Source: Nitrosopumilus sp. (GTDB lineage Archaea > Thermoproteota > Nitrososphaeria > Nitrososphaerales > Nitrosopumilaceae). Taken from it: a stretch of 64,000 nt of DNA. A model generated the notes under the pieces. That model had not been told where the DNA came from, made no database searches, and saw only the letters and a program-made list of their open reading frames with translations. This document shows positions 1-62,760 of this stretch, one piece after another. The stretch is taken from assembly GCA_965218695.1 (NCBI GenBank), contig OZ244651.1, forward strand, positions 640,001 to 704,000. The letters are read 5' to 3'. Positions within the stretch are counted from its first letter, which is position 1, and the number at the start of each line of letters is the position of its first letter. A program made the translations under genes and the position numbers.

Positions 1-1
1 C

Positions 2-133
2 AATACCGGCGTCTGGCACGTCTGCAAGGAGTGCTATACGGCCGGATGGTGCTATCGTTGTGGACGGCACAAGATGACTTTGAAGGGTGAATGGTGCAAG
101 AACTGCAAGAAGCAGGTTTACGGCCGGGTCTAA
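2..133 (+). CDS. Cys-rich zinc-binding microprotein (5' end outside window)
   Basis: Hand translation NTGVWHVCKECYTAGWCYRCGRHKMTLKGEWCKNCKKQVYGRV*; paralog of 165..332. Confidence 0.7.
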   Translation, partial: NTGVWHVCKECYTAGWCYRCGRHKMTLKGEWCKNCKKQVYGRV

Positions 134-164
134 AGTCCTTTTATCATTATCATGTCATTTGGAC

Positions 165-332
165 ATGGCCAAGTGCATAAGGTGCAGCAATACTATCACG
201 AACGGCGGCATGTGGCATATCTGCCACGAATGCTATGCGGCCGGATGGTGCTATGACTGCGGGAAAAACCAGCGGTCCGGCGGCAACGCCTACTGTGCCA
301 AATGCGGCAAGAGGTATTCGGGCCAAGACTGA
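165..332 (+). CDS. Cys-rich zinc-binding microprotein, 55 aa, four CxxC
   Basis: MAKCIRC...ICHECYAAGWCYDCGKN...CAKCG; TTTTA box 26 nt upstream of ATG. Confidence 0.75.
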   Translation: MAKCIRCSNTITNGGMWHICHECYAAGWCYDCGKNQRSGGNAYCAKCGKRYSGQD

Positions 333-407
333 CCTAATCAAGCCGGCGGTTTTTATCATTTCCATGACTGCCAGACATGGGCATCAGGCGGGTTCCACGA
401 CAACGAC

Positions 408-575
408 ATGGAAGCCGGGATCATCGAGGACAGGTGTCCCGCATGCGGCGCGTCCATGAAGAGGGTGCGGTGCAACGGGTGCGACGGCGCGGCGATTTGT
501 TGCCAGAAATGCGGCTACGTCGACAAGTCACACGTCGCGAACAGGCCGGATGCGTTGTACCGTTTTCAGGCATGA
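408..575 (+). CDS. Zn-ribbon microprotein, 55 aa
   Basis: Hand translation MEAGIIEDRCPACGASMKRVRCNGCDGAAICCQKCGYVD...; below ORF-track cutoff. Confidence 0.55.
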   Translation: MEAGIIEDRCPACGASMKRVRCNGCDGAAICCQKCGYVDKSHVANRPDALYRFQA

Positions 576-747
576 ATGCAACCGGGTGCGCCTGAGTACT
601 GGCTCGTGTACAGTCAGCCCAGTTGCTGGCAGACATGGCAATTACCACTGAATGTGATGAATTTGTCACATTCAGCGGCAATCAGGCAGCCATATCGGAT
701 TCGGTCCGGATGCGTTGTCAACTGGCACGACTGTCCAAACACCGACC

Positions 748-1068
748 TCACGCGGCCGCTTTTTTGACGACGAACTCAAAATATCCCTCGCGGCAATAAT
801 ACCCGGCACAGCACGTCTCCTCTGGGCAGTTTATGATGCCTATGATCCATATCGGCTTGCCGGCCACGTTAACCACCGTGTGCTTGTCGTTTAGCTCCAC
901 AGGCGGGCCGCACCTCGGGCACGCCAGCACGAACGTGGCGTAATCCATTTTTCCTTCAGGACCGATCCAGGGCGCGTGCTTCTGTCGCTGCCAGAACGTG
1001 CATTCGCCTGGCTTCGGTTTGGACCATTTTTTGTCGACCAACACAAGGCCCGGTTTCTGTTTTCTCAT
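748..1068 (-). CDS. Hypothetical Cys-containing protein, loosely DUF6527-like
   Basis: ACPRCG...INCPEETC..YY.REG pattern; TATA box 27 nt upstream. Confidence 0.6.
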   Translation of the reverse strand: MRKQKPGLVLVDKKWSKPKPGECTFWQRQKHAPWIGPEGKMDYATFVLACPRCGPPVELNDKHTVVNVAGKPIWIIGIINCPEETCCAGYYCREGYFEFVVKKAAA

Positions 1069-1149
1069 GGAACAACGGGCTGAATTCTATAAAAAGGGAG
1101 TTATAGCGTGCCCGCTATACTGCTTTTATGCTGAACGGTTCTTGGCAGC

Positions 1150-1371
1150 GTGGGGATGCACGTCAAGAAGATAAAGAAGAAACAGTACCTGTATTTCACT
1201 GAGATGCAGAACGGCAAAAAAGTGGAGACGTACTGCGGCTCGGTCGAGAATCCGGCCTCCAGGCTTAAGGCGCTGTCGCTGGAAAAGAAGAGACTGGAAA
1301 GGAAACAACAGGAGGATCTGGCCAACCTGGAGGCCATCCAACTGCAGTTGGGGCCGATGACCGTTTCCTAG
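1150..1371 (+). CDS. Small basic DNA-binding protein of archaeal virus/plasmid type, with coiled coil
   Basis: KKIKKKQYLYF...GKKVETYCG resembles the SSV1 D-335-like/integrative-element motif. Confidence 0.6.
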   Translation: MGMHVKKIKKKQYLYFTEMQNGKKVETYCGSVENPASRLKALSLEKKRLERKQQEDLANLEAIQLQLGPMTVS

Positions 1372-1401
1372 CCTCTTTTAAGTAGGGCTGCCATGGAATG
1401 C

Positions 1402-2199
1402 GTGTCCGAGTATTACACGGAGGGCGAAGAGTCCGGCGGCAAAAAAAAGTACGTCATATTGGGCGCGGTTGGAGCTGCAGGCGTGGTTGCGGCATTGCTG
1501 GTGTTTTCCGGAATTTTGGATATCATGGTGAATGATGAGCCAGTCGGGGTGCCGGAGATTGACGAAGACAGGCTGTCCGTGTTTACCGACCTACCTGAGA
1601 TAATGGACGGGTTGGAGGTGCCGGAGATTGAGGTTGTCCCAGTACAGGAGGAGGAAGAGGGTGACGGCGACACCGGACTGGTTCCTGCAGAAACAGAGGT
1701 GATTGAGGACGCGCAGGAAGGCGACGTCCAAAGCCTTGCGGAACTGGCGATGGACCTGCTTGTTGACACGCAGGAGGAATACGGATTTGTCAACGAGCCT
1801 GCCGACGACAGCGGCCTGACCATGGAGGACATACTGGGCGCGGATCCGCCGGACCCGGAGGACGTGGCAGAACCCGGCGCCGACATACTTGAAAAGGTCG
1901 AGGAGTTCAAGAAGATACACGCAGAGCCGGTCCCTGATGGCGCGACGTCAGGCACCGTGACGTGGGTGCTTACAGGAAACACCATCAACATAAACGAAGT
2001 AATTATACACCTGGCCGGGGTGCGCGCAGGCGGTGTGGGCGACAGGGACGATCTGATGCGGGAATGCCCGCGCGACACGCTGGTGCTGTACACGCTTGAC
2101 GGGAGGACGGATTCAGACGGCAATCTGTATGGAAAGGCCTGGTGCTACGGGTATACCCCGACCCAACCAGAGACCAGCGTAAATAATATCCTCAAATGA
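1402..2199 (+). CDS. Membrane-anchored acidic protein with degenerate C-terminal thermonuclease (SNase)-like domain
   Basis: N-terminal TM helix, D/E-rich linker, GTVTWVLTGNTI...HLAGV...CP...D..GNLYGKAWC; GTG 26 nt after TATA (ATG 1393 is the alternative start). Confidence 0.7.
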   Translation: MSEYYTEGEESGGKKKYVILGAVGAAGVVAALLVFSGILDIMVNDEPVGVPEIDEDRLSVFTDLPEIMDGLEVPEIEVVPVQEEEEGDGDTGLVPAETEVIEDAQEGDVQSLAELAMDLLVDTQEEYGFVNEPADDSGLTMEDILGADPPDPEDVAEPGADILEKVEEFKKIHAEPVPDGATSGTVTWVLTGNTININEVIIHLAGVRAGGVGDRDDLMRECPRDTLVLYTLDGRTDSDGNLYGKAWCYGYTPTQPETSVNNILK

Positions 2200-2292
2200 T
2201 TGCCCGCGCGACACGCCGCGCGCACAGTCTTGGCATGTTTGGACTTGCGGCCAAGACTTTGCTCCTTTTACGTGCCACAAGGTAGCAGTACG

Positions 2293-2472
2293 ATGTCAAA
2301 AGACGACAGGGAGAGGCTGGTCGAACTGCAAAACTTCCTAGCCGGCCTTCAAGAAAAGATTAACAAGTACAGCGGGGACCCGACGAAAAAGAAGGACCTT
2401 TACCTTGCCAAGAGTATGGCGCGAAAATGCAGAAACGAGATCAACGAATTGCACAAAAAACTTGGATACTAA
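2293..2472 (+). CDS. Small coiled-coil hypothetical protein
   Basis: MSKDDRERLVELQ...; TATA box 27 nt upstream. Confidence 0.6.
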   Translation: MSKDDRERLVELQNFLAGLQEKINKYSGDPTKKKDLYLAKSMARKCRNEINELHKKLGY

Positions 2473-2645
2473 TCTTCACACACATTGATCCCGTGCTCGT
2501 ACTCGATGGCGTACAAGCCGTATGACAGGCAGTCCAGCATGACGGCTATCCTTTTCCTGTGTTCGGCAGTGTCCGGATCTGGATCCTTTTCCCCGGACTG
2601 CCGCATGTATTCGGCGCCGCGCAGCAGCTCTTTACAGTAATTCAT
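2469..2645 (-). CDS. Small hypothetical protein
   Basis: MNYCKELLRG...; TATA-like box ~27 nt upstream. Confidence 0.5.
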   Translation of the reverse strand: MNYCKELLRGAEYMRQSGEKDPDPDTAEHRKRIAVMLDCLSYGLYAIEYEHGINVCED

Positions 2646-2686
2646 GACATGGTAATGGCAAAGTGGGATAAATGGATTCTGCGTGA

Positions 2687-3244
2687 TCAACCCAGAATGT
2701 TCATTATTCTGGCATGGACGTCTTCTGTCGTGCCCGTCGCGTCCACGACGCGCCATCTTCTCTTTTCTGCCATGGAACGGTACACCTCACTTACCCTGCT
2801 GAGGAAGGCAAGATCGGACTCAAACACGTCGCGGTCCTTTTTTCTCCGCCTGAACGACTCTTCTGGCGGGATGTCCAGCAGTATGACGATATCGGCCTTG
2901 GGCATGCCGTCGTCCAGGTTTTCCAGCCACGCCTTGGGCATGCCGTTTACCATACCGTACACGAGGTTGGACTGGACGTAACGGTTCATTACGAGCACAT
3001 CGTGTTTTGCATGCCTGATGCCGTGCACGGCCTCCCAGTGGTTCGCGGTCATCAGGCAGTGCAGTACCTGCGGCGCAACGTAGCCGCCTGCCAGGATTTC
3101 ACCGATGACGCCACCGATCCGCGTAGTATAATCTGGAAAGTCAAACCGCCTGACTGTCTTCCCCGCGTCTTTCAGGGCGCGCTCCAGCATGATCGACTGC
3201 GTCTTCTTGCCTGCCTGGTCCACTCCCTCGATTACGATGATCAA
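2687..3244 (-). CDS. tmk: Thymidylate (dTMP) kinase
   Basis: IIVIEGVDQAGKKTQ P-loop, FPDY, MNRY..SNLVYG, LDIPPEES; TTG start inferred from TATA spacing (ATG 3268 is the alternative). Confidence 0.92.
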   Translation of the reverse strand: MIIVIEGVDQAGKKTQSIMLERALKDAGKTVRRFDFPDYTTRIGGVIGEILAGGYVAPQVLHCLMTANHWEAVHGIRHAKHDVLVMNRYVQSNLVYGMVNGMPKAWLENLDDGMPKADIVILLDIPPEESFRRRKKDRDVFESDLAFLSRVSEVYRSMAEKRRWRVVDATGTTEDVHARIMNILG

Positions 3245-3304
3245 CGGGATTGATGGAATGGTTGGCATAAAAGGAAACCCAACTCCTTGTACCAAAATGC
3301 CGCT

Positions 3305-3553
3305 ATGAAAAACAAATGCAACTGCAGGCCGTGCTCTGACACGTCTGGCAAAAACAAAACGCGCGCGTGCGGCATGTGCGGCGGGACGATGAAGAACGTC
3401 CAGGTCGTGTGTTACAACGAAAACTCCAACGTCATAGGGCAGCAATGGGTTACCAAGAGAGGCGATCCACGGACGTCGAACCACGGTTGGTCACAAATGC
3501 GGCGGCGAATGCATGGTCTAGCATGCAAGAATTCTCCCTTTTTACGTGGATGA
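3305..3553 (+). CDS. Zn-ribbon hypothetical protein
   Basis: CNCRPC and CGMCGG motifs. Confidence 0.45.
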   Translation: MKNKCNCRPCSDTSGKNKTRACGMCGGTMKNVQVVCYNENSNVIGQQWVTKRGDPRTSNHGWSQMRRRMHGLACKNSPFLRG

Positions 3554-3565
3554 TCCCTCGGCATC

Positions 3566-3760
3566 ATGCCAAAATACAACGTGACTGTCCAACTGTCAGG
3601 CATAAACGGCAACGCCATCGCAACGCTCAACGCCGTCAGTCGGGGGCTGAAAAGGGCAGGCGTGCAGCAGTCAGAGATAGACAAGTTTCAGAGTGAAGCC
3701 ACGTCCGGCGACTATGACCGCGTGATCCAGACGGCCATGAAATGGGTCAACGTGGCATAG
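3566..3760 (+). CDS. Small conserved phage/mobile-element-type protein
   Basis: V.V.L.G.NGNA...V...LKRAG...F..EA.SGDY motif, recognised from small phage/ICE hypotheticals. Confidence 0.7.
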   Translation: MPKYNVTVQLSGINGNAIATLNAVSRGLKRAGVQQSEIDKFQSEATSGDYDRVIQTAMKWVNVA

Positions 3761-3793
3761 CCACTTTTTTACGGAAGGAACCGACAAAGCCAT

Positions 3794-4042
3794 ATGTGGA
3801 TTTTCCACAAACCATCCATGGCCATAAAGGCAGACGTATTGGAGGACAAAATTGAGAACGAGGAACCTGAAACCACCACCGATGTCGAGCACCTGGTGTG
3901 GAAATTCCTGACGCGCACCCCCGAAAATGAAAGGGAGGTACGGTTGCTGGTAGAGCGTATCAAGGCCAAGCTGCTGCTGGAGAACAAAATCGTCGAGTCC
4001 AAATACACGATGTTTGAGCTGTGGCAGCAGTCGAGACGATGA
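3794..4042 (+). CDS. Hypothetical protein
   Basis: Open frame with TATA box 27 nt upstream. Confidence 0.55.
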   Translation: MWIFHKPSMAIKADVLEDKIENEEPETTTDVEHLVWKFLTRTPENEREVRLLVERIKAKLLLENKIVESKYTMFELWQQSRR

Positions 4043-4310
4043 GGCCGTTTTAAGCAAAAAACATCCCATAGTCCATGAGTGAATGCGCCTGCCACACCCC
4101 GACGCCGGTGTTGGACGAGGTAGCAGGAGAAACCGTCTGTTCCAAATGCGCGCGCGTGCTGGATGATTCAATGGAACAACCATGCAAGAACCAGGGCCAG
4201 AACCACATGGTGCTTGGAAACCGCGTGTCATCCACGAAAATACAGGGAAACGCCAAGATGCGGCGCGCCAGCAGATGTCCAACAGGGTCGACCAAAAAGG
4301 AATGGACACG

Positions 4311-5483
4311 AGACATAATCCGTAATTAGAAATTGTACATATTTTCCTATACTGTGTAGGTTTTTTGACTCCTATCAGGTTGCTTCCCGGACTAGGAGAA
4401 CCCTGAGGTTGGCAAATCCGCAGACGATGTCATTGACGGTGTCGTATTTTTTCAGGCGGTTTCGGTAGACACCGCTCATTATGCGAAACCGTTTGACCCT
4501 GCGGATGGCGTGCTCCACATACACCCGTGCCTTTGAGTGCTTTTTGTTGAATTCCTTCTGCTCGGGGGACAATTCTGCGCCTTTTTGCTTCTTGTACGGC
4601 ACTACTGCATCCCGGTCAGGAAATTCTTTGTTGATCCCCTGGTATCCGTTGTCCAGGATCTCTCTGACTTTGATCCTTTCCTTGTCCTTGCTCCCGTCCT
4701 TGCGTGGAAGGTTGTCAGGGAATGTCGGGTGTTTCTTTTTGAATACTGCAAAGTCGTGGATCCTGCCCGGGGAATGCCGGGTCTTGTGAATGATGAGGCC
4801 ATCTGTGGCCGACGTGTACTGGATCTTGGACGTGTGCCTGTGTGCCTTGCCCGAGTAGTGGGACCGTTCCATGTCCTTGCGTCCGGGACGTTGTATCTGC
4901 TGCTCTGAGGCATCAATCAGGGCAGTCAGGCCCGGAATGATCTCCTCAAGATCGTCAAGCGTCTTGGTGGCCTTGATGTTGGCGTAGATCTTTGACGGAA
5001 GCGGAACGCACTGCCGGATCGACGGCTCCAGTGCCCCCATGCTGCGGGACACGCTAGCCTGGCCCATCTGAAACACCATGGCAAGAAGATCCTGCGTAGC
5101 GTATGTCCTGTAATAAAACAGGACCAGAAGAAACCTGTTTTTCAGATCCAGTTTCCACCTGCGTCCGGCACCAATGCCGCGCACCCTGCTTCTTTTGGCG
5201 AGTCGCTTTTGCTCTGCCTTGGGGTATTTTTTTGCCAGCCGCCCTGCCACCAAATTAAATTCGGAGACTGTCAGTCCAGTGCACCGGATGAACAGTTTGG
5301 GCTTTTTTGCTAATTTGTCGTATAATGACATGCTTTGACATTGGCAATCAGAATAAAACACGGCTGACGTATAGTTTTGATCATCGGGCAAGTTCGAATT
5401 GACATGCAATTCCATGCAGTCAGCCAGATTTGTCCTGCAATGCGTCCAATCTCGTGATTATGCCCAATTACGGATGATGTCTC
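4311..5483 (-). mobile_element. IS5-family (ISL2/IS702-like) element, copy 1
   Basis: TIR (G)AGACATAATCCGTAATT / AATTACGGATGATGTCTC; 2-bp CG duplication; near-identical to 61253-62425. Confidence 0.92.
4375..5331 (-). CDS. IS5-family transposase (HTH_Tnp_4 + DDE_Tnp_4)
   Basis: LIDASE, ILDNGYQG, RVYVEHAIRRVKRF triad. Confidence 0.92.
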   Translation of the reverse strand: MSLYDKLAKKPKLFIRCTGLTVSEFNLVAGRLAKKYPKAEQKRLAKRSRVRGIGAGRRWKLDLKNRFLLVLFYYRTYATQDLLAMVFQMGQASVSRSMGALEPSIRQCVPLPSKIYANIKATKTLDDLEEIIPGLTALIDASEQQIQRPGRKDMERSHYSGKAHRHTSKIQYTSATDGLIIHKTRHSPGRIHDFAVFKKKHPTFPDNLPRKDGSKDKERIKVREILDNGYQGINKEFPDRDAVVPYKKQKGAELSPEQKEFNKKHSKARVYVEHAIRRVKRFRIMSGVYRNRLKKYDTVNDIVCGFANLRVLLVREAT

Positions 5484-6123
5484 CGGACTACATGATAAAA
5501 TCATGCTGCAACAAACTCTGGATTCCACAGACGGTAGCGGACCGCGCCATGATCATATTTGACAAGTTCAGGAAGAGTCTTGGCGGCGGAAACCCGGCCA
5601 ACCATACAGCGGCTGTCGTATACATGGCGTGTAGGGAGCGCGGCGTGGCGCGCAGCATGAAGGAGATATTTTCGGCACTTGACGCAGATTCCAAGAAGGC
5701 CCGCCGCGCGTATTACAAGCTGCACAAATCAATGGATGCTGTCTTGCCGGTCCCAGATGCGGCCGGTTTTGCCACGCGTTTGGCATCAGACCTCAACTTA
5801 CCAGAAAAGACGGCGCGCAGGGCGTTAAAGATACTGGAACGGTTGAACGATGCGGGCTTGACGACCGGACACGGTCCAACCATACTGGCCGCGTACGCCA
5901 CGTATGCCGCATTGAACCGGACAGAGGGCGTCACGCAAGGAATGATAGTCAAGGCGGCCGGGATATCCGAAGCTGTGCTGCGTGAGCTGGGCGTGGCAGT
6001 CAGGGCCGATGAGTTTGCAGTCAGGATGAACGCGACAGGTTCAGTCAGGTGAAATTTGTCTGAAATGTCGGAAAGAAAAAGAAGGATTTGCCCTTTATAC
6101 CGTTTTCATTTCTTATGCGTACA

Positions 6124-6255
6124 ATGAATGACGTCTGCGTGCCTGCAAACCCACTATGCACATCTTTGGATCCTGTGCGCATGACCAAAAAGATCCCCCC
6201 ACCCGGGGCGGGAATAATCAACGCTGAACGGCCGGAGGCCGCGCCGCGATGTTAG
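6124..6255 (+). CDS. Short leader ORF (43 aa) overlapping the pilin-like start
   Basis: MND...RPEAAPRC*; positional homolog 61149..61247 (MNG...HPEAAP*) behind the same promoter motif. Confidence 0.4.
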   Translation: MNDVCVPANPLCTSLDPVRMTKKIPPPGAGIINAERPEAAPRC

Positions 6256-6587
6256 TGTCCGGCATAGTCATAATCGTCCTGGTCGTGGCAGGCGCGGCAG
6301 TGATGTTCTTCTTGACAGAATCAAACAACCAGACCATAGCAGCGGGTACCATAATCGCCATACATGACAACGAGCGCGTCAAGGAAGACGTGGACATCGT
6401 GTGGGGCGGCCAGGACTTGAAGATGCACAACGCCGGGCCTGAGACGGAGATACTTGAATACCGCGTGCTTGATGATGACGGCACCCTACTTCGCGTCTGT
6501 ACGGTCGAACATGAGGTGGGAGCGTCCGTGAAAGAGACGGTCAATACGGCGGCATTCGACGAATGCTGGCAGGAGTTTTTGACATGA
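6249..6587 (+). CDS. Archaeal type IV pilin-like small protein
   Basis: N-terminal hydrophobic helix, amphipathic helix ending ERVKE, small beta domain with two Cys; no clear class III cleavage site. Confidence 0.6.
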   Translation: MLVSGIVIIVLVVAGAAVMFFLTESNNQTIAAGTIIAIHDNERVKEDVDIVWGGQDLKMHNAGPETEILEYRVLDDDGTLLRVCTVEHEVGASVKETVNTAAFDECWQEFLT

Positions 6588-9286
6588 GGACAAAACTGGC
6601 TGCAGTCGCATTGGTATTGGCAATAGCCGCCGCAGCATACGCGGGATTCGCAGAGGACGCGTTTGCCAAACAGCTCCAGGTGGTTACGTCGCGCGGCAAC
6701 GTCTTTACCGTAAAGGTTGACATACCGACCAACAGCACGCATACTGTCCTGGTAATCAACAGCACGCAAATAATCAACAGCACGCAGGTGATCAACAACA
6801 CCAACCCCGGGATAACCTTCCCGATGGAAATCGTCACGAAGAACGCAGAGGGCCACATCGTCTACGGGAACGGCACGAGTGGTGCAGAAAAGCCGCTGGA
6901 CCCGTACACGTTCCCAGGCGAGTTTGAGTTTGCAGCAGTCGTGCTGGACGCGGACGCCAAGAATACGATGCCCATACCCAAACTCCTGGCAAAATACGAG
7001 ATGGTTAATGACGATTCGCTGAACTGGATAGAGGACACCGACACCGGCGACAACATCCTGGTTCCGCTGGACGTGGATCCGGCAACATACGGGAACGGGT
7101 GGAAAGTGGAAGGCGATTGGACAGTACTTGACAACACTCCAGGGGAAAGCCGCAAGACACAGGCCAGCATAGACCTCCCGCTAAACGAGCAGCTCACGAT
7201 GAAGGGCGACATTTCAAGCGGCATGACGGTCCAAATCATATCGGTCGTACGGCCTTTCAACCCCAACACCGTCAGTTATTACAGTCAATACGTATCGTCT
7301 TCTTCTTCGTCTTTGGAAAAAAAGTATTTCGAGTATGACGGCCCGACATTCAGTTATTTTGGCAGTAAATACATACCCAAACAATGTACATGGTGGCCAA
7401 ACAGTTTGACATACCAGGGATTCAAGACCAACTATCCGAGTCCCGGACAGGGACTCGGGCCAAACCACATCGTCTATAATGGATACGGACCTACCAACGT
7501 GGCCACTAGCGCGGGCTGCGCAATACAACCACATATAACCACATACATAAATGGACCCGGGTCGAATATCGGATTCGACGGCGACCGATGGACAGGTTAT
7601 ACAATATACGGAGAGATGTTGAGAAGCACCAGCGGGCTTACCCTGTATCCAAACGTTTACGCTCTTGGCTGCCAGTCGTCAACGCACATAAGCGTAACGA
7701 CAAGTTATAGGGAAGGCGGAAGTAGCGGCATACACACCGTGAATGTGCCGTACACTAAAACGCCTACTGTGACTTGTGTCAGTGAACACGGATACCAAAA
7801 AATCACGAGAATTGACATCCCAGGCGAGTCCATACGAAAGAAAATAGAACGTGTTGGTTATGGTTCTGCTCCCACCTTGACGTTTTACGTGCCTGTGACT
7901 GCATCTGTCCGGATCGACATACCGCAAATACCGCCCACAATACAGGTGCTGCACTCGTTCAGCGGGCAAGACATTAGCCATCCTTTCACTATGCAGTCGT
8001 ACAGCGGAAACCTGTATCTCAGGACGGTCGGCGGTGACGCCACGTCGACGGCACAGATCAAGGTGTTTGAGGGAGAGGAGATCCCGCCGGCATTCATAGT
8101 TACGAACATGCCAGAGAATGCGCCGTACAGGATAACGGCCGACGGCATCACCATAATATCCGGCCTGACGTCGAGCGCAGGCGGCATAGAAGTCACTCCT
8201 GCAGACATGGATTTTGATTTCTTTGAGGGCAAGAATCTTGAACTCACGATATGGCCCGACTCCCTGTCCAGACGCGGAGGCAGCAGCGATGCCGTGATGT
8301 TTGACGCATACAACAAAGAAACCAAGGACTTTCGGTGGCACGTTCCAATCATATACGTGGCCGAATCCATGCTGCAGGTAAGCATAGATCAAGACGGCAT
8401 GGACATTGCCGGAGTCATATTGGAAGGCGGGTCTGACATCAGTTTTGATGGGCGCCAGGGGTTGTACAATGACGGGGACGAGTTGCTTGTCCCGCTGTAC
8501 CCGGATGCCAATGCGATTGCAATCAGGGTCAACGGGGAATGGGCAGACGGCATCCTGGCAGATATCCAGCAGTTTCCGCATTCTGTAAGAATGACAGAGG
8601 CCGAAAACTCCGCGACCAAATACGCTTTCAGCAATGACCTGGGATTCACGGTGGCGCGCGCGTCTGACAGGATCGCCGCGTTTGCCAACAGCACCGGCGA
8701 CATGCAGATCCAATTCGTCAATGCCAAGGCGTCCGGAAGCGCGGAATTCCCGTTTGACTCCTATTACTATGGAAACTTTACCCCGCCCGGAGCGCCTGAC
8801 ACGGAGGAGTGTTTCGTGTATGACAGGTGCGGTGTATGGGTGGACAGTGCCACGCATGCAGACCCGACCAGCGTCAGTTGGGGCCCGATAACGCAGTGGG
8901 TAATAGACAACAATCCGGCGGGGGTGCAGCAGGTGATGGCAGCACAGGGGCCGCTCACGGTATACGTCAATGCGTACGTAAACGGCGAATGGGTCCAAGG
9001 CCAGACGATATTTGAAAGCACGGACGTCACTGTCGTGCCCGGCGATTACTTGGACAGGCACCTCGTATACCAGTACAACGGCGGCCTGGAATACGGCATG
9101 GAAGACGACGATGCAACCATGCGCGTGCCGGTCCAATCAGGCGACTTTGTGGAGTTTGTGGTGAGCTCCAGAACAATGGCGGCCTCGACTCCGGTGTATG
9201 CAGGCAGCGGCACTTCAGCAGACGTATGGTGGGGAAACAGCACGTCGCGAATCCACAGCGGCCTCATGCAAGTCAGCATGCCGTGA
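6584..9286 (+). CDS. Large secreted beta-rich protein (putative adhesin) with variable central domain
   Basis: ATGA overlap with upstream gene, signal peptide ending AYA/AFA, paralog at 62757. Confidence 0.85.
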   Translation: MRTKLAAVALVLAIAAAAYAGFAEDAFAKQLQVVTSRGNVFTVKVDIPTNSTHTVLVINSTQIINSTQVINNTNPGITFPMEIVTKNAEGHIVYGNGTSGAEKPLDPYTFPGEFEFAAVVLDADAKNTMPIPKLLAKYEMVNDDSLNWIEDTDTGDNILVPLDVDPATYGNGWKVEGDWTVLDNTPGESRKTQASIDLPLNEQLTMKGDISSGMTVQIISVVRPFNPNTVSYYSQYVSSSSSSLEKKYFEYDGPTFSYFGSKYIPKQCTWWPNSLTYQGFKTNYPSPGQGLGPNHIVYNGYGPTNVATSAGCAIQPHITTYINGPGSNIGFDGDRWTGYTIYGEMLRSTSGLTLYPNVYALGCQSSTHISVTTSYREGGSSGIHTVNVPYTKTPTVTCVSEHGYQKITRIDIPGESIRKKIERVGYGSAPTLTFYVPVTASVRIDIPQIPPTIQVLHSFSGQDISHPFTMQSYSGNLYLRTVGGDATSTAQIKVFEGEEIPPAFIVTNMPENAPYRITADGITIISGLTSSAGGIEVTPADMDFDFFEGKNLELTIWPDSLSRRGGSSDAVMFDAYNKETKDFRWHVPIIYVAESMLQVSIDQDGMDIAGVILEGGSDISFDGRQGLYNDGDELLVPLYPDANAIAIRVNGEWADGILADIQQFPHSVRMTEAENSATKYAFSNDLGFTVARASDRIAAFANSTGDMQIQFVNAKASGSAEFPFDSYYYGNFTPPGAPDTEECFVYDRCGVWVDSATHADPTSVSWGPITQWVIDNNPAGVQQVMAAQGPLTVYVNAYVNGEWVQGQTIFESTDVTVVPGDYLDRHLVYQYNGGLEYGMEDDDATMRVPVQSGDFVEFVVSSRTMAASTPVYAGSGTSADVWWGNSTSRIHSGLMQVSMP

Positions 9287-9917
9287 TTGGCCAAAACGCG
9301 GCATAATTGAAAGATGGTACACCATACTGTACCAACAACCGTACATGCCATGTTTACTTATCATGAATACACATCCCTTTATTACTGACGGAACATCAAT
9401 AATGTCATGAACCTGACCAACCCACGGATATTCATCCCGCTGGCGTGGCTTGGCTGCACGGTCGCGTATTTCGTGGCGGCGTTCTGGCTGCCGAGGCCGG
9501 ACTTTGCGGTCCAGGAGACGGCAGTGCCGGTAAGCGGCATACTTGAGATTTGGTGGCACGAGATAATGAGGAGCGCGCCAGTGCTGATACCGGGGTTTGG
9601 TGCAGTATGGGGAATCCTTTCCAGCATGGGCTTTGCCCACTCCGTGTTCTTCATGTCAGAGAACGGTATGTTTGCCATGGGACCGCAGTTCATGTTCGTG
9701 ACGTTTCCGTTCCTTTCACTGTACTTGTTGGCGCAGTGCATCATGATCAGGCGCGGAATCCTGATACTCATGGCCTTGCGGCAGCCTGCAGAAACCGAAG
9801 AGGTGGCAGCAGCGTATAGTGCCCATCATAAAGATCCGGAACGGTAAACCCAGTTTTGGTTCCGGTACTGCCTGAATAATCAAAACCTTAAGATCAGCGA
9901 TACCTCCGCGCTTAATC

Positions 9918-11018
9918 ATGGCTGGTACAAAACGCCGAAACGAAAACATACCCAAGGGAGACGCGTTCATGGCAGGCACATCCATGAGGGAGATCCAAGA
10001 GGCCCTCAAAAAAGAGAAGAACGGCAAAGCAGTCAACATACTGCTTGCCTGCATGTGGAGGCGTGAGGGAGAAGACGGGGTATGGATCGCAGGCAAGCTG
10101 CACGTGCCGGTCAGTACCATTTACGACCGGCTGCACCGCATGCACTTGGGCGGTCTTGATGCATGTCCTGACAAGACCAAGCCCGGAAGGCCAAGAAAGA
10201 TCCAGCCAGAAATCCATTCAAAGATATCCGAGTCCATCGACAGGCAGCCGGGCGGATGTGGGATAAAATCCAACGTCTGGACCGGAAGGCTGATTCTGAT
10301 CATGATCTCCAGTCTGTTCTCCATTGACAACGTCTCTCCCAGTACGGCATACAGGACGATGCACAGGCTGAACAAGACATACAGAAAACCCGGAAGGCCG
10401 CGCCACGGCCGCTCGCCTTCTGACGAGGTAAAGGCAGAATTTAAGCGCGGCCTGGCAAAGGAGATTTTTAGCAATACCGTGGATGGACACCGCCTCTTCT
10501 GGATGGACGAGTCCCATTTTACCACAAAAACGATCCGCGGCATGACCTGGCTTGCGCGTGGCCTGTCAATACCGCAGGTGATCAAGCCGTTTGGCAGGAG
10601 CTACACGTGCTTTGGGGCACTGGGATTGGACGGTCTGCTACACCACAGGTACTATGACTGCGGCAACACCGATTCGATGATTGATTTTGTCAATGGCCTG
10701 CACGATGCCTACGGGAAGGTACTCTTGGTGATGGACAATGCATCCATCCACAAATCCAAAAAGCTGATGGCAGAGTTGAAAAAGTACGATGGGGACGTCA
10801 GGATTGCCTACCAGCCGACATATTCGCCGGATCTCAACCCAGTCGAGATGGTCTGGAAAGAACTCAAGAGGTACGTCGCCAACGGCCTGTACCGGCGTGT
10901 GGAGGACATGACGGGAGCCATGGACGAGATGATTCAGTCAGGCACGGTAAGTCTGCCCCAACTGCCAGAATACGCGACAGATGCAATCAGGCGCGCCAAG
11001 GCGACTGCTGCTGCCTGA
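9918..11018 (+). CDS. IS630 transposase
   Basis: WMDESHF, VMDNASIH, YSPDLNPVEMVW. Confidence 0.95.
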   Translation: MAGTKRRNENIPKGDAFMAGTSMREIQEALKKEKNGKAVNILLACMWRREGEDGVWIAGKLHVPVSTIYDRLHRMHLGGLDACPDKTKPGRPRKIQPEIHSKISESIDRQPGGCGIKSNVWTGRLILIMISSLFSIDNVSPSTAYRTMHRLNKTYRKPGRPRHGRSPSDEVKAEFKRGLAKEIFSNTVDGHRLFWMDESHFTTKTIRGMTWLARGLSIPQVIKPFGRSYTCFGALGLDGLLHHRYYDCGNTDSMIDFVNGLHDAYGKVLLVMDNASIHKSKKLMAELKKYDGDVRIAYQPTYSPDLNPVEMVWKELKRYVANGLYRRVEDMTGAMDEMIQSGTVSLPQLPEYATDAIRRAKATAAA

Positions 11019-11052
11019 CGACTTGGGGGCGAGGTGCGCGTACCTGTGGGAG

Positions 11053-11340
11053 TCAGGCCCGATCCTTCGAGTATGGATCACGACACTCGTGCCGCGCATC
11101 TAGCCCGCCGTGGTGCATCCGGCACAGCCAGTCCTCGACTGTATCGGGTGACATGTAAAACATGTCTGCAATCTCCGAGCACCCGTCACCTTCCTTGCGC
11201 CGTAGGCAAATGAGTAGCGGAAAACTGCTCCAGGCATACCTGTCCATCCCGTGTACTGCCCGGATGTCATTGGCAGATATGCCCTCCATGAATTTGTCCC
11301 CCTTGGGCACCTTGTCGTCCGGGTGTTTTTCTCCGGTCAC
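11053..11340 (-). CDS. HTH-only paralog of the IS630 transposase N-terminus
   Basis: PKGDKFMEG...LLICLRRKEG...IA...RMHHGGLDA aligns with transposase PKGDAFMAG...LLACMWRREG...IA...RMHLGGLDA. Confidence 0.75.
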   Translation of the reverse strand: MTGEKHPDDKVPKGDKFMEGISANDIRAVHGMDRYAWSSFPLLICLRRKEGDGCSEIADMFYMSPDTVEDWLCRMHHGGLDARHECRDPYSKDRA

Positions 11341-12089
11341 GGCATGGTCTGGGAGTGGAATGATCTAAACGTTTCTGCTGTCCCGGTAGTGCGATGCCGG
11401 ACGCGTGACGTGCCAAAATCCCCGTCACCATTCCGGATATTTATGACGGGTACTATACCACGAGTCCGAACAGACCGCTGGATGGAGCGAAAGCGGTAGC
11501 GGTGGATATGACGCCTCCTTTATTGACAAACTTGCTCCGATGGCAAGGCCGTTCCTGCGAGATGCCGGCATATTCTTCGCGCTGCTGTTCGTCTCGGCTG
11601 TCCTGACGTTCGTGGCATGGGGCGAGGCGCCGTCAAGCACGACGCTCCAGGCATATTGGACATACAACGGAATGCTTGACTATTGGGCAACACTGCCAGA
11701 AAGGATCGGTGAATTTGTGCCTGTCGTTGACTGGGACACCATGGTTGGCACCGCGTGGGAATCGCTTGTTTGATCCCGGCCGGCGTGCCATGACGAGGCG
11801 TGAATCTGCCATCGCGTGAATGACCCTCAATTGGAACCATCCCGCGGTACGTACGCATGCATGCACAGTTTCTGCAACGCGATGCTGTCTGTCTTGCCGC
11901 GCAAATGCCAGGTCATCTGCCAAACCATATTGTAAACGGCTCCGAGGTGGCACCGCCAAGATGTGTATATCTTAAGCTCATTCCGGCCAGATTGCCTTCG
12001 TACCGGTGCTCAAATTCGGCATGGCCTTTCCATGACATGCTGCCATGAAGCATTATGTGTCGCGTAGGGTCGGTGCGCGTCCCTCTGTC

Positions 12090-13634
12090 GTATGAATTCA
12101 CCTGCCCCTTATATCAGTCGACCAACTTCTTCGGCCACGCTCTTGCCATGTGCCCTCCACGTGAGGACGCACGTGACAAAATCTGCAAGGCGCTTCATGG
12201 CCTTGGAGCCGCCCTTGGTCTGCCCGCTTATCTTGCGGAACACCACCAGGTAGCGCAGCGCCCTCTCGCTGGCGTTGTTTGTAGGCTCGACGCCGGGATG
12301 CTCCAGGAACGCAAACATGCGGTGCAGGTGCCTCTCGAGCTTGTCCAGCACCTTTTGCATGTCGTCATCGTCACCACCACCACCGGCATCGCGGTACCGG
12401 TCAAGCACGTCCTGCATGGTGCGGTTCATCGTATGCCGCAGCTGTGGCGAGCGCGCCTCCTGCGCGGCCAGCAGTTTTGCCCTCTCAAACACCCACTTGT
12501 GGTCCTCGTGGAGCTGCCGCCGCCGCCGCCGGACACGTTTGGTCTCGGGAGGCACGGCGCAGTATTTTTCTGCCAGGTGCCTTGTCTGCCGGAGGTCGTG
12601 CGCCCAGCACGACTGGTGCATGCCGTCCTTGTCAAACCTGTCATATCCGGTGTACCCGTCAGTTATCGCCACCCCGTCAAATTTGTCCATGGCATCGAGC
12701 ATGAGCGTGGCCCTGCTCTGGCTGATGTTTATTGCGATGTTTTTGCCCGACTGTGCCACGTTTGCGTGTACCTTCTGGCCGTCGTTTCGCCAGCTGGTTT
12801 CGTCAAACCCGGCACAGTCAGAAGCCTCCACTTCCCCGAGGATCCTGCCTGCCTCGTGGCCCGAGGCGTCCCCGACGCGTGCCATGATGTTGTTGACGGT
12901 GGATCCTGCAAGCATAATGCCCGTTATGGAGCGCACCGCGACCGAGATTCCCTTGAGCGGCACCCGTGCCGCGCGCAGTTCTGAGACGAGTCCGACCATG
13001 CCCTTGCCGAAGTTGCCCCGCCGCGGCAGGTCGTTTGGAGCATCTTCCCTGCGGCCGCATGAGCCGCATACTGCAGTCTCCACGCGGTGCCGCGTCTCGC
13101 ACGCAGTCACCCTGATGTCCGTGATGTCCCGCACGCGCGGACTGCCAATCGCCATCCGGCCGCCGCCGCCGCCGCACCCGCATTCCGGGAGCACCGGCAC
13201 CCGCCTCCTGCCCGACTTCCTGCGCCCGAACCTGTGGGATACGGTCCTTTCCGGGTCGTGGGGGCGCGACGCCCCCGCGTGTCCCTTTCTTCCCCCGCGC
13301 TTGGATTTGCCCTCCTTTTCCTGTTTTTTTGCCCGCTCCCTCTTCTGGGCCTTCCATTCCAGGGATTCAGATGAGGGCGGCGTGTTGGGGTTTGTATAGT
13401 ATGTCATGAGGCGTTCGCTGTACCCCAAGGCCCTTTCAAGACGTTCTATCCTGCCAAGTGCCTTCTCAAGATCGGATTTGAGGGTGGCAATCTCCCGGTT
13501 CCGTGCTAGGAGTTCCTCTTTTAGCTGGTCCCTGCTCATGTGCCGTGAATTTACCATGTAAAGTGATGTGTATTGCCAGCATATGGATCAGTATGATCAT
13601 TTTTTTGTGACAGGAAGGACAGGTGAATTCATAC
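12090..13634 (-). mobile_element. IS66-family single-ORF (ISBst12-like) element, copy 1
   Basis: TIR GTATGAATTCACCTG; 8-bp TSD CCTCTGTC. Confidence 0.95.
12109..13557 (-). CDS. IS66 transposase
   Basis: NTPPSS, FDETSW, TDGY, QSCWAH, PTNNASERALR. Confidence 0.95.
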   Translation of the reverse strand: MVNSRHMSRDQLKEELLARNREIATLKSDLEKALGRIERLERALGYSERLMTYYTNPNTPPSSESLEWKAQKRERAKKQEKEGKSKRGGRKGHAGASRPHDPERTVSHRFGRRKSGRRRVPVLPECGCGGGGGRMAIGSPRVRDITDIRVTACETRHRVETAVCGSCGRREDAPNDLPRRGNFGKGMVGLVSELRAARVPLKGISVAVRSITGIMLAGSTVNNIMARVGDASGHEAGRILGEVEASDCAGFDETSWRNDGQKVHANVAQSGKNIAINISQSRATLMLDAMDKFDGVAITDGYTGYDRFDKDGMHQSCWAHDLRQTRHLAEKYCAVPPETKRVRRRRRQLHEDHKWVFERAKLLAAQEARSPQLRHTMNRTMQDVLDRYRDAGGGGDDDDMQKVLDKLERHLHRMFAFLEHPGVEPTNNASERALRYLVVFRKISGQTKGGSKAMKRLADFVTCVLTWRAHGKSVAEEVGRLI

Positions 13635-13912
13635 CCTCTGTCCGCTCAAACCTTTAAAAGAAAAGCATCCCAATACAAAACGTGGTTATTATAAACTGCA
13701 ATATTGTAGCGAAAGTTCGTATTTAAACTGCTTTTGGAAAAACTGGTATTCCCGTTTTGGCCGGTTCCGTGTAGGGCACAAGATACGGATTGCCGCCGTT
13801 GCACAACTCGATGTTTGACGCATGTCTGCAGTGTACCCTGCATGCTGGGAATCGGAGACGGCACAATGAAGAAGTTTTGCGGCCGTTTTATTAGATTCAA
13901 TGCCTGCTTCCC

Positions 13913-14128
13913 ATGGAACGCAGGCGGGCATGTCGCTGGGGGCCGATATCGGACATGTCAGTGGTTGTGAGCATGTCGGCGTTCTGGGCCGTCTGCGGGT
14001 GGCTGTTTGCGCAGATCATGTTTCCCGAACTGCCGCACATGGTGCCAATCACGATATCCCTGATACACATAACGCATGTGGCATATTTTGCCATTGCAGA
14101 CTGGCGTGCGTCAAGAACTATCCCTTGA
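13913..14128 (+). CDS. Small membrane protein
   Basis: Two hydrophobic segments; GGCCGTTTTA box 27 nt upstream. Confidence 0.45.
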   Translation: MERRRACRWGPISDMSVVVSMSAFWAVCGWLFAQIMFPELPHMVPITISLIHITHVAYFAIADWRASRTIP

Positions 14129-14174
14129 ATGCCGAATAGTAACGTGCTTCGTGGCAGTGTCACTTGCCGCATGA

Positions 14175-14321
14175 TCATTTGAGAAAGCAGTATTTGCACT
14201 GCGATGCGTATCCGGCCTGCCTGTTCTTGCCGCAGTCGTCGCACCACCCGTTGCCTATGCATGACTCACATACGGTCACGTTACTCTCACACCGATCCAT
14301 TCTGCAATGATTGCACATCAT
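14175..14321 (-). CDS. Cys-rich microprotein, paralog of 165..332
   Basis: MMCNHC...VCESCIGNGWCDDCGKNRQ...CKYC. Confidence 0.7.
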   Translation of the reverse strand: MMCNHCRMDRCESNVTVCESCIGNGWCDDCGKNRQAGYASQCKYCFLK

Positions 14322-14545
14322 GGACGGATATGCTCCAAAATGGTATAAGGGAAAAGTCACATGCAGGCAGACAGGCAGCACCGTATGGCGTTATGGTTCA
14401 TCCAATGTGAATGCAAATGGACCGCAAAGGCGCATCATGCACGGAATCTGGACGTGAGCGATACTGTCGTTGAGGTGGCACGCCCGTAAACCACTGCAAT
14501 CCAAGACGGGGTTTGTATAAATATCGAAAATGATCTACGTATCCC

Positions 14546-60875: not shown

Positions 60876-61148
60876 CCCAGGGCGCCGTTGCGATGCCGCC
60901 ACGTGCGGGGCATGCGGCGAACTGACTAAGATTTTGGCAATCGCCTGTAACTGTTAAGGAGTTCATGCCGATGCCGGATCCCGGCAGCCGCATCCTGCCA
61001 GGTCGTGGCAGGACTACACAACCAGACGGCGTACCGAAGGGTCATCGCCAAGTTGGGAGCCGGTCCAATCGTGAACGTTTGGGCGTGAACGCGCGCAAGG
61101 GAAGCGGTAATTTGCCCCTTATACCATTATTCGGCCCTTGCTGGCACG

Positions 61149-61247: not shown

Positions 61248-61252
61248 TGCTG

Positions 61253-62425
61253 AGACATAATCCGTAATTAGAAATTGTACATATTTTCCTATACTGTGTA
61301 GGTTTTTTGACTCCTATCAGGTTGCTTCCCGGACTAGGAGAACCCTGAGGTTGGCAAATCCGCAGACGATGTCATTGACGGTGTCGTATTTTTTCAGGCG
61401 GTTTCGGTAGACACCGCTCATTATGCGAAACCGTTTGACCCTGCGGATGGCATGCTTCACATACACCCGTGCCTTTGAGTGCTTTTTGTTGAATTCCTTC
61501 TGCTCGGGGGACAATTCTGCGCCTTTTTGCTTCTTGTACGGCACTACTGCATCCCGGTCAGGAAATTCTTTGTTGATCCCCTGGTATCCGTTGTCCAGGA
61601 TCTCTCTGACTTTGATCCTTTCCTTGTCCTTGCTCCCGTCCTTGCGTGGAAGGTTGTCAGGGAATGTCGGGTGTTTCTTCTTGAATACTGCAAAGTCGTG
61701 GATCCTGCCCGGGGAATGCCGGGTCTTGTGAAGGATGAGGCCGTCCGTGGCCGACGTGTACTGGACCTTGGACGTGTGCCTGTGTGCCTTGCCCGAGTAG
61801 TGGGACCGTTCCATGTCCTTGCGTCCGGGACGCTGTATCTGCTGCTCGGAGGCATCAATCAGGGCAGTCAGGCCAGGAATGATCTCCTCAAGATCGTCAA
61901 GCGTCTTGGTGGCCTTGATGTTGGCGTAGATCTTTGACGGAAGCGGAACGCACTGCCGGATCGACGGCTCCAGTGCCCCCATGCTGCGGGACACACTGGC
62001 CTGACCCACATGGAACGTCAGGGCAAGAAGATCCTGCGTAGCGTATGTCCTGTAATAAAACAGGACCAGAAGAAACCTGTTTTTCAGATCCAGTTTCCAC
62101 CTGCGTCCGGCACCAATGCCGCGCACCCTGCTTCTTTTGGCGAGTCGCTTTTGCTCTGCCTTGGGGTATTTTTTTGCCAGCCGCCCTGCCACCAAATTAA
62201 ATTCGGAGACTGTCAGTCCAGTGCACCGGATGAACAGTTTGGGCTTTTTTGCTAATTTGTCGTATAATGACATGCTTTGACATTGGCAATCAGAATAAAA
62301 CACGGCTGACGTATAGTTTTGATCATCGGGCAAGTTCGAATTGACATGCAATTCCATGCAGTCAGCCAGATTTGTCCTGCAATGCGTCCAATCTCGTGAT
62401 TATGCCCAATTACGGATGATGTCTC
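61253..62425 (-). mobile_element. IS5-family (ISL2-like) element, copy 2; transposase 61317..62273 with catalytic E->K
   Basis: Same TIRs as copy 1; 2-bp TG duplication; VYVKHAI instead of VYVEHAI. Confidence 0.92.
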
Positions 62426-62760
62426 TGGTCTCTGGAATAGCCATCATCATCCTGGTGGTGGCAGGCGTGGCAGTCATGTTTGTAATCATGCAGGAGAATG
62501 CAGACGTTGCAGACAATGTAGTTGATGTTGCAAATCACAACAACGAGCGCATCAAGGAAGACGTAGACATCGTGTGGAACGGCCAAGACTTGAAGATGCA
62601 CAACGCCGGCCCGGAGATAGACATACTGGAATACAGGGTGTTGGACGATGACGGCGCCATACTCCGCATCTGTCCAGTCGAGCAGGAAGTCGGCTCGTCA
62701 AAGAAGGAAGTCGTGGACACCACGCCATTCGATGAATGCTGGAGGGAATTCTTGACATGA
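62416..62760 (+). CDS. Pilin-like protein copy 2 (native ATG at 61247; IS inserted at codon 2)
   Basis: Paralog of 6249..6587; in-frame ATGATG supplied by the IS end. Confidence 0.7.
   Translation: MMSLVSGIAIIILVVAGVAVMFVIMQENADVADNVVDVANHNNERIKEDVDIVWNGQDLKMHNAGPEIDILEYRVLDDDGAILRICPVEQEVGSSKKEVVDTTPFDECWREFLT

Follow-up and report, generated by a model that had tools for sequence, protein, structure and literature searches.

A second, C-rich core-promoter class in integrated mobile-element DNA of a Nitrosopumilus genome, with broken genes for a short TFB among its members

The stretch of DNA analyzed here (the window, 64,000 nucleotides, positions 640,001–704,000 of contig OZ244651.1, called C1 below) belongs to a 2.63-Mb Nitrosopumilus sp. 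genome (GCA_965218695.1, G000 in comparisons) that is assembled in nine contigs and rich in insertion sequence (IS) copies. Its first 14.4 kb encode small CxxC proteins, a thymidylate kinase, a gene for transcription factor B (TFB) split by an IS, and three transposases of different families. This island does not stand out by its GC content (0.52–0.58 inside, against 0.51–0.585 across the whole window), and no tRNA genes were found in the window. The initial annotation had described TATA boxes preceded by C-rich sequence upstream of most island genes, at the position of the TFB recognition element (BRE), and had proposed that the island TFB, with its altered recognition helix, reads them as a private regulon. 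The boxes represent a well-supported, genuine second core-promoter class of an integrated mobile-element family.

All of the listed boxes were found in the window, most with the first T 26–29 nt before a start codon, and 15 island boxes were scored against the position weight matrix of this class (class 2), learned genome-wide on G000. Six score at least 10 bits. These are GGCCG-TTTTAAGCAAAA at 4043–4059 on the plus strand (first T 4048, 27 nt to the TFB ATG at 4075; 15.5 bits), CTCCC-TTTTTATAG at 1089–1104 on the minus strand (first T 1094/1095, 26–27 nt to ATG 1068; 14.0 bits), TTCC-TTTTATGC at 3267–3276 on the minus strand (first T 3272, 28 nt to TTG 3244, the tmk start; 12.9 bits), CTCCC-TTTTTAC at 3534–3545 on the plus strand (first T 3539/3540, 26–27 nt to ATG 3566; 11.3 bits), ACTGC-TTTTATGC at 1120–1131 on the plus strand, absent from the earlier list (first T 1124, 26 nt to GTG 1150; 11.1 bits), and CCAC-TTTTTTAC at 3761–3772 on the plus strand (first T 3765–3767, 27–29 nt to ATG 3794; 10.4 bits). 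The boxes at 1094 and 1124 stand back to back, 30 nt apart. The TFB promoter is among the best class-2 scores; its box is identical in the sister species G002, and its sequence from −31 to −1 differs by 3 bases from that of G002, in which the 3534 box and its spacing are also preserved while the flanks have diverged. The tmk gene itself (thymidylate kinase, 2687–3244, minus strand) is a second genomic copy.

Four further boxes, all on the plus strand, score 5.6–8.1 bits: GTCC-TTTTAT at 135–144 (first T 139, 26 nt to ATG 165 of a small CxxC protein; 8.1 bits), TCCC-TTTATT at 9374–9383 (first T 9378, 29 nt to ATG 9407; 7.3 bits), CCTC-TTTTAA at 1372–1381 (6.0 bits) and GGCCG-TTTTAT at 13881–13891 (first T 13886, 27 nt to ATG 13913 of a 71-codon open reading frame, ORF; 5.6 bits). 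The 1372–1381 box, whose first T at 1376 lies 17 nt from ATG 1393 and 26 nt from the in-frame GTG 1402, fits the GTG rather than the ATG, and it is counted once, with the GTG. Five boxes score 3.6 bits or less, among them TGCCC-TTTATACC at 6089–6100 on the plus strand (first T 6094, 21 nt to ATG 6115; 3.6 bits), CTCC-TTTTAC at 2262–2271 on the plus strand (first T 2266, 27 nt to ATG 2293; 2.7 bits, with a mismatched tail), and TCCC-TTATACC at 14342–14352 on the minus strand (first T 14348, 27 nt to ATG 14321 of a small CxxC protein), whose score of −0.3 bits reflects a TTATACC variant that the matrix does not cover. The T-rich sequence GGCGG-TTTTTAT at 349–355 (plus strand, 27–28 nt to ATG 377; 0.1 bits) has GGCGG in place of the C-run, and had already been set outside the pattern. 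The low-scoring island boxes do not have the GCAAAC-like tail downstream.

Kept apart from this tally is TGCCCC-TTATACC at 61113–61125 on the plus strand (first T 61119, 30 nt to ATG 61149; 7.5 bits), a paralogue of the 6089 promoter. ATG 6115 opens a 46-codon ORF ahead of a gene pair at 6249–6587 (112 aa) and 6563–9286 (907 aa, without a Pfam match); at the other end of the window, a second copy of the 1175-bp IS found in the TFB gene (61252–62430) separates the 61.1-kb promoter and small ORF from the operon (62.4–65.4 kb). Paralogues of the 907-aa protein were observed at 62.7–65.4 kb in window coordinates and perhaps also at C1:709–712 kb.

For the genome-wide analysis, genes were called with a crude codon-bias caller (2371 genes, with small ORFs missed). 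Initial motif runs converged on the promoters of multi-copy IS and were discarded; the analysis was rerun after removal of all genes sharing any 20-mer of the start region with another gene, which left 1815. A two-class mixture was fitted to these by expectation-maximization (EM), with sites required to have an in-frame start codon 22–32 nt downstream, and yielded about 898 class-1 and about 71 class-2 genes. The class-1 motif is AA-NN-tTTAWATa, with the first T 29–31 nt before the start codon and the AA at −34/−33. The class-2 motif is A..CCCC-TTTTAW-GCAAAC, in which the start codon follows the first T at a distance d of 26 nt (0.54), 27 nt (0.24) or 28 nt (0.12), so that its boxes are 3–4 nt nearer the start codon. 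Counted from the start codon, the C-run occupies about −30 to −27, the TTTTAW box −26 to −21 and the GCAAAC-like tail −20 to −15. Its information content is about double that of the core promoter, and it reaches past the box into GCAAAC. At the four positions preceding the box, C frequencies are 0.50/0.52/0.70/0.53 in class 2 and 0.10/0.07/0.21/0.20 in class 1; class 2 thus departs from the canonical A-rich BRE, with C at 0.50–0.70 where class 1 has A at 0.63–0.66.

The two spacings were also observed in pattern counts over the whole genome that are independent of gene calling. CCTTTTA-to-ATG distances peak at 26 nt (12 sites) and 27 nt (7 sites), against about 2 at each other spacing, and AANNTTTAWA-to-ATG distances peak at 29–31 nt. 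Class-2 matches of at least 10 bits precede 63 genes at d = 25–28, against 2, 7, 8, 11 and 5 genes at five control spacings. Additionally, three or more C among the 4 nt before the T-box were found in 17/85 T-boxes at d = 26–27 and in 12/279 at d = 28–31. C-rich BRE positions are thus rare in ordinary promoters and tied to the shorter spacing, which decides the first refuting condition of the initial annotation, equal frequency in core promoters, in its favour.

The matrix also contains an A-rich patch at −35 to −33, which was considered as a displaced BRE and rejected, its interspecies identity being only 0.33; back-to-back promoter pairs, for example ATAAAAGGGCCTTTTAT, account for part of it. 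Compact pairs of the form ATAAAAGG(G/C)CCTTTTAT were observed at C1:534,746/534,752, 601,005/601,010 and 510,496/510,502, where the T-boxes face outward across 5–6 GC-rich bases, each with a gene 26–28 nt off. No palindrome or repeat general to class 2 was found, G being merely 0.10–0.20 where a palindrome would require it.

Class-2 promoters are clustered along the genome. Scores of at least 10 bits were obtained for 68 genes, 41 of which lie in C1:500–765 kb, a region with 234 of the 2371 called genes, and 31 of 66 regular-expression matches with an ORF behind them fall within C1:503–759 kb. Among the C-rich T-boxes at d = 26–27, 16/17 are in 500–765 kb. The class occupies patches at C1:502–511, 524–562, 586–602, 620–644 and 716–760 kb; in all, about 60 genes have it, two thirds of them in these patches. 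The window's first 14 kb are the right-hand end of one of these patches in an archipelago of mobile-element DNA, and the core part of the window sits between two patches. The class is therefore not specific to the island, nor is it a private 14-kb regulon as first proposed, since the 41 genes are spread over several patches. The proposed split between island and core genes within the window was borne out: class 2 precedes 5/16 called genes at 1–14.4 kb and 0/45 at 14.4–61 kb (hypergeometric probability about 7e-4, independent of the 500–765 kb bounds), and class 1 precedes 1/16 island and 16/45 core called genes.

Conservation was assessed in G002, a 2.2-Mb single-contig sister species of the same genus with homologous islands at 74–82% nucleotide identity. 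Its class-2 matches cluster alike, with 24 of 40 pattern matches in 1,047–1,276 kb, about 10% of the genome. Among 16 G000 class-2 genes with an N-terminally aligned G002 orthologue, three G000 paralogues mapping to one G002 locus and one IS-like gene were dropped, leaving 12 promoter pairs. In ungapped alignments anchored at the start codon, identity was 0.29 at −60 to −36, 0.33 at −35 to −31, 0.58 at −30 to −27 (the C-run), 0.79 at −26 to −21 (the T-box), 0.63 at −20 to −15 and 0.51 at −14 to −1; boxes and spacing were retained while the upstream sequence was unalignable. As judged from these alignments, the comparison shows that selection maintains the C-run, the T-box and their spacing across species. 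The class-2 genes are themselves constrained, with dN/dS values of 0.12–0.28 in four full-length pairs: the ribonucleotide reductase (RNR; 0.20 over 1225 codons) and three small genes, p112, p64 and p82 (0.12–0.28). Values of 0.23–0.32 were obtained for four partly aligned pairs, and the 907-aa gene, truncated in G002, gave 0.25 over 643 codons.

In a third species with a complete 1.9-Mb genome (G018), 12 of 22 pattern matches lie in two small islands and appear class-2-like. In one island an integrase-like gene comes first, immediately behind a block that is syntenic with G000; the other holds an integrase-like gene with a putative class-2-like promoter. No TFB or TBP gene of any kind was found in these islands, neither a short TFB nor an extra TBP; the G018 set comprises five canonical TFBs, a fusion protein of about 700 aa described below, and two TBPs. 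The pattern count over 41 genomes of the genus was uninformative, as most are AT-rich and the built-in control shifts with composition. Fifteen matches in G047, considered as independent cases, mostly had a conserved stretch in common just before the ATG; they look like one repeated family and were not counted.

The TFB of the window belongs to a rare clade of short, divergent TFBs. Among the TFB genes of G000, five are canonical, with the recognition helix V[TS][ED]VTIRNR, two divergent copies of a short TFB lie at 554 and 645 kb (the latter in the window), and a more divergent TFB-like gene lies at 714 kb; a 678-aa fusion with one cyclin repeat (536.5–538.5 kb) and a fragment complete the list. 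Both short-TFB genes have class-2 promoters of their own. A protein search gave 11 clusters at E<=1e-20, including intact members of 256–272 aa from other assemblies, and the clade aligns to TFIIB/TFB core structures including 1d3u and 1ais. Its zinc ribbon, C-x-C...C-x-x-C, is invariant in the clade alignment (PF08271 23 bits, below the cut-off of 29), and the two cyclin repeats are kept (PF00382 77 bits over two stretches). Between ribbon and first cyclin repeat the clade is shorter by about 30 residues, with nothing matching the ..GPEWRSF.. B-reader. Box-to-start spacing, shorter in class 2, is what one would expect an altered B-reader or linker to affect.

The altered recognition helix reported earlier is present, as ISEAVLREL within a C-terminal AGISEAVLREL. 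It aligns to residues 278–289 of human TFIIB and differs from VTEVTIRNR at 5/9 residues, with the Arg retained; the clade consensus is G[IV][TS][DE]xxLRxL. Residues V283 and R286 of human TFIIB are BRE contacts; the Arg is kept here, and the residue at the Val position is variable. Members of the clade were found in 2/151 genomes of the genus and 2/401 of the family (G000 and G002 both times). No close relatives were found in viral_contigs or in JGI metagenome_contigs, and genome_contigs gave only G002.

As the initial annotation stated, the TFB copy in the window is broken. Its 5' part (4075–4308, plus strand) encodes the zinc ribbon, with no B-reader, and lacks one nucleotide directly behind 4272, which shifts the frame; a 1175-bp IS follows at 4309–5483 on the minus strand (DDE_Tnp_4 transposase at 4375–5415; about 15 genomic copies), and the 3' part (5484–6052, plus strand) encodes the two cyclin repeats and the C-terminal helix. 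The IS is polymorphic, as a contig of run X6 joins 4308 to 5484. This IS-free contig is identical over 3808–4308 and retains the deletion; removal of the IS restores the 3' frame and not the 5' frame. In a three-way DNA alignment the window copy is one base short relative to both the G002 and the 554-kb copies. The search for an intact paralogue elsewhere in these genomes returned damaged genes. In the 554-kb copy one base is missing behind codon 7 when it is aligned with the window and G002 copies, a point at which the intact relative P0001 reads through, and the halves of the G002 copy are separated by IS debris (a transposase fragment) and other ORFs. The short-TFB pieces have dN/dS values of 0.25–0.32, which implies that the losses are recent and independent. 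As to co-occurrence of factor and motif, both are found in G000 and G002, with the factor broken in each, and G018 carries class-2-like promoters without the factor.

Four TBP genes are present in G000 (C1:552,799–553,314, 1,614,010–1,614,525, 76,550–77,065 and 2,261,832–2,262,347). They are 72–84% identical, and their DNA-facing strand motifs are alike when compared by eye, which gives no sign of an island TBP as the reader of the class. G002 also encodes four. In G000 and in G002, two of the four lie in or near class-2 clusters; G018 has two TBPs. The 553-kb TBP lies 0.5 kb from the 554-kb short TFB; it shares with the 1614-kb TBP an N-terminal extension and a near-identical upstream region that fits neither promoter class. 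Class-2 integrase-like genes adjoin the 2262-kb TBP and lie 6 kb from the 1614-kb TBP. The 714-kb TFB-like protein, also considered as a candidate for the present reader and neither favoured nor disfavoured by the data, is 25% identical to the short TFB; its gene has no class-2 promoter, and no orthologue was found with this query in G002, G018, G044 or G047. The 678-aa fusion (C1:536,495–538,531) combines N-terminal winged-helix domains with a single C-terminal TFIIB-type cyclin repeat. Its gene directly follows the pilus-type ATPase gene in G000, with orthologues at 834 kb in G002 and 136 kb in G018.

Because every short-TFB copy in G000 and G002 is broken and G018 has class-2-like promoters without one, we infer that initiation at class-2 promoters is at present carried out by the host RNA polymerase with host TBP and a canonical TFB, the short TFB being a lost auxiliary; we give this reading a probability of roughly 55%. 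Broken here and absent in G018, the short TFB cannot be the present-day reader in this genome, and the class can evidently last without it. In the host reading, one of the five canonical TFBs would act without its usual A-specific BRE contacts, and the short TFB, while intact, would have been an element-borne auxiliary or specialized initiation factor that raised or timed class-2 use. A host reader and the leaderless state of class-2 transcripts are presumed, while the class itself, its distribution and conservation and the state of the TFB genes are seen directly in the sequences. No RNA run was found for positions 1–10000 of the window. Several points weigh against this reading. All five canonical TFBs have one helix and the core BRE is A-rich, which makes a conserved C-run an odd target; neither this C-run nor the spacing shorter by 3–4 nt is explained by a host reader; and the dN/dS of the TFB fragments (0.25–0.32) indicates function until recently, so that the interspecies conservation may date from a working TFB. 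Furthermore, the Fisher p of 1e-25 for the clustering is descriptive, as the 500–765 kb bounds were drawn after seeing the matches and the matrix was trained on G000, and the 2371 gene calls, with small ORFs missed, are crude.

A rival reading follows the initial annotation. The short TFB would be a sigma-like private factor that the elements use, perhaps with a TBP of their own, to drive their genes; its helix would read the C-run, its shortened linker would set the nearer start, and with its copies freshly dead the regulon would now be silent or leaky. Inside class-2 patches lie three divergent TFB-like genes, at 554, 645 and 714 kb, and a TBP gene (552.8–553.3 kb), both short-TFB genes have class-2 promoters, and the differences match on both sides, BRE positions with BRE helix and box-to-start spacing with B-reader and linker. 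The dN/dS of the fragments implies a recent loss, intact short TFBs of 256–272 aa exist in other assemblies, TFIIB homologues are reported for all thaumarchaeal integrative-conjugative elements (ICEs; PMC6563490), and Sulfolobus TFB2 is described as having its own regulon, including tfb2, with a different BRE–TATA spacing (10.64898/2026.09.06.749720). However, none of the three genomic copies is intact, each being broken differently, and G018 has class-2-like promoters, one before an integrase-like gene, without a short TFB or extra TBP. The Arg that we take to be the main base-contacting residue of the helix is kept in most clade members, the 714-kb TFB has neither a class-2 promoter nor, with this query, an orthologue in G002, G018, G044 or G047, and the four TBPs look alike by eye at their DNA-facing strand motifs. 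We regard a private factor as plausible but less likely than not, and not as the present-day mechanism in this genome. What stands of the alternative-factor model is a distinct class, marking mobile DNA, and a divergent TFB with a class-2 promoter; the class is not private, and the TFB copies are broken. More speculatively, conjugative or pilus-type elements may bring along a B-reader-less TFB that reads a C-rich BRE and sets the start 3–4 bp closer, at promoters where the hosts' own TFBs are poor, and the three independent knock-outs might then represent hosts grounding the element; we consider this, too, less likely than not.

A regulator other than a TFB could also be at work, the 16–20 nt motif being mainly its site over an ordinary weak promoter. 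The candidates would be a small element-encoded repressor or activator, or the fusion of about 700 aa with winged helix-turn-helix (HTH) domains and a single cyclin repeat. The motif is about twice as informative as the core promoter and continues past the box into GCAAAC, the fusion gene directly follows the pilus ATPase gene and is present in G000, G002 and G018, and Pyrococcus TFB-RF1 is described as an activator of weak-BRE promoters (PMC5937170). The absence of a class-wide palindrome or repeat (G at 0.10–0.20 at the needed positions) and the location of the fusion gene outside class-2 clusters in G002 (834 kb) and G018 (136 kb) make such a regulator improbable. Finally, the class could be an artefact, with duplicated genes or IS copies sharing boxes by descent or T-rich hexamers arising by chance. 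The first motif runs were indeed dominated by IS copies, and the clusters at 528–551 and 716–746 kb are paralogous, so that several promoter pairs are not independent. On the other side, the EM took only genes without a 20-mer common to another start region, the class precedes many unrelated genes, the spacing control gave 63 against 2–11 genes, and the interspecies footprint is limited to −31 to −15. With the footprint, the spacing control and the counts of C-rich T-boxes, an artefact is largely refuted and highly improbable.

A single architecture is usually assumed for archaeal promoters, in which an A-rich BRE and a TATA box stand at a constant distance from the start. The present genome has two cleanly separate ones, of which the second is associated with mobile DNA, conserved between species, and different at the places where TFB contacts DNA and where it sets the start. 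In the literature covered, with supplements outside that coverage, no description of an element-specific promoter class in Thaumarchaeota was found. In bacteria, phages and other elements encode sigma factors for their own promoter class. The likeness is a mobile element with its own promoter-recognition subunit; here the link is inferred and the factor inactivated, and sigma factors belong to a different protein family and domain of life. Pyrococcus furiosus TFB2 is a chromosomal, natural TFB without a conserved B-reader, and is not known to have a promoter class of its own. The short TFB resembles it in having no B-reader motif and, unlike it, is element-borne. In Sulfolobus, TFB3 reportedly controls Ups pilus and Ced DNA-transfer genes. 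The short TFB differs from TFB3 in keeping both cyclin repeats and the HTH. Schult et al. 2018 (PMC6101591) describe TFB3 as a truncated paralogue of TFB with links to cell aggregation and the UV response.

Closer parallels come from reports on element-borne and paralogous TFBs. The thaumarchaeal ICEs were all reported with TFIIB homologues (Krupovic et al. 2019, PMC6563490), and TFIIB homologues were reported in many archaeal type IV pilus loci (Makarova et al. 2016, PMC4858521); both papers report gene content, and the word "promoter" is absent from their main texts (PMC6563490, PMC4858521). As in those ICEs and pilus loci, a TFB homologue lies here in integrated DNA with FlaI/VirB11-type ATPase and TadC-type genes. 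Unlike the TFBs of those loci, the short TFB is not beside an annotated ParB gene, has no B-reader and is broken, and a matching promoter class is defined. Sulfolobus acidocaldarius TFB2 is described as a conserved chromosomal cell-cycle factor with a division-phase regulon determined by ChIP-seq (Kuo et al., 10.64898/2026.09.06.749720). Both cases present a TFB paralogue with a candidate target set that includes its own gene and with altered promoter spacing. As described there, however, the TFB2 BRE resembles that of TFB1, whereas here the BRE positions differ and the factor is element-borne, dead and known from sequence.

The class allows a sigma-like role of TFB paralogues, and the use of such a role by mobile elements, to be tested directly. 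If such a role is real, an element-borne TFB would be an archaeal counterpart of phage and ICE sigma factors. Even if the host machinery reads the class, it provides a sequence marker for the element family, better start calls for many small genes, and a natural promoter that is BRE-less or C-rich with a shortened box-to-start distance.

Regarding the cargo of the patches, two paralogous pilus- or conjugation-like clusters (528–551 and 716–746 kb) each contain a FlaI/VirB11-type ATPase, a TadC-type protein and a 1652-aa protein, with T2SSE at 534.8 and 729.2 kb and T2SSF at 548.8–550.8 kb. The paralogous 1652/1653-aa proteins (C1:540,330–545,288 and 732,249–737,210) have class-2 promoters, signal-peptide-like N-termini and no Pfam match. 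Among 40 island proteins scanned, a set that most island genes lie outside, no VirB4/VirD4-type ATPase was found, and a PrgI/VirB3-like match was weak and below the cut-off. Further cargo includes an MmeI-type restriction-modification gene, DNA methylases and an SbcCD-like gene pair. The MmeI-type gene (904 aa, C1:554,630–557,344) follows the 554-kb short TFB, and the window TFB is followed by the 907-aa gene. Weak integrase-like matches were identified at 762.8, 1607 and 2263 kb and on contig C9; those at 1607 and 2263 kb, outside the patches, also have class-2 promoters.

Just upstream of the window lie a dCMP deaminase gene and second-copy genes for RNR (C1:624,518–628,210) and the DNA polymerase PolB (633,966–637,454), each with an intein of the LAGLIDADG homing-endonuclease type. 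For the island RNR, PolB and tmk genes, all second copies, the presumed host versions were located at 2154, 1546 and 2104 kb. A TnpB/Cas12f-like gene (OrfB_IS605 and TNB domains, C1:620,211–621,560) was observed at the left of the patch whose other end is in the window. tRNA-Met genes were found at C1:502,300–502,374, on the left edge of the first patch, and at 637,817–637,892, within the patch upstream of the window. Very small, Cys-rich proteins with CxxC repeats, many of them missed by the gene caller, form a scattered family encoded in the window at 165–332, 377–595 and, on the minus strand, 14175–14321, and elsewhere at C1:599,771, 600,724 (minus), 760,722 and 809,520 (minus). Most of these genes have class-2 boxes, though the ORF at 377–595 does not (0.1 bits).

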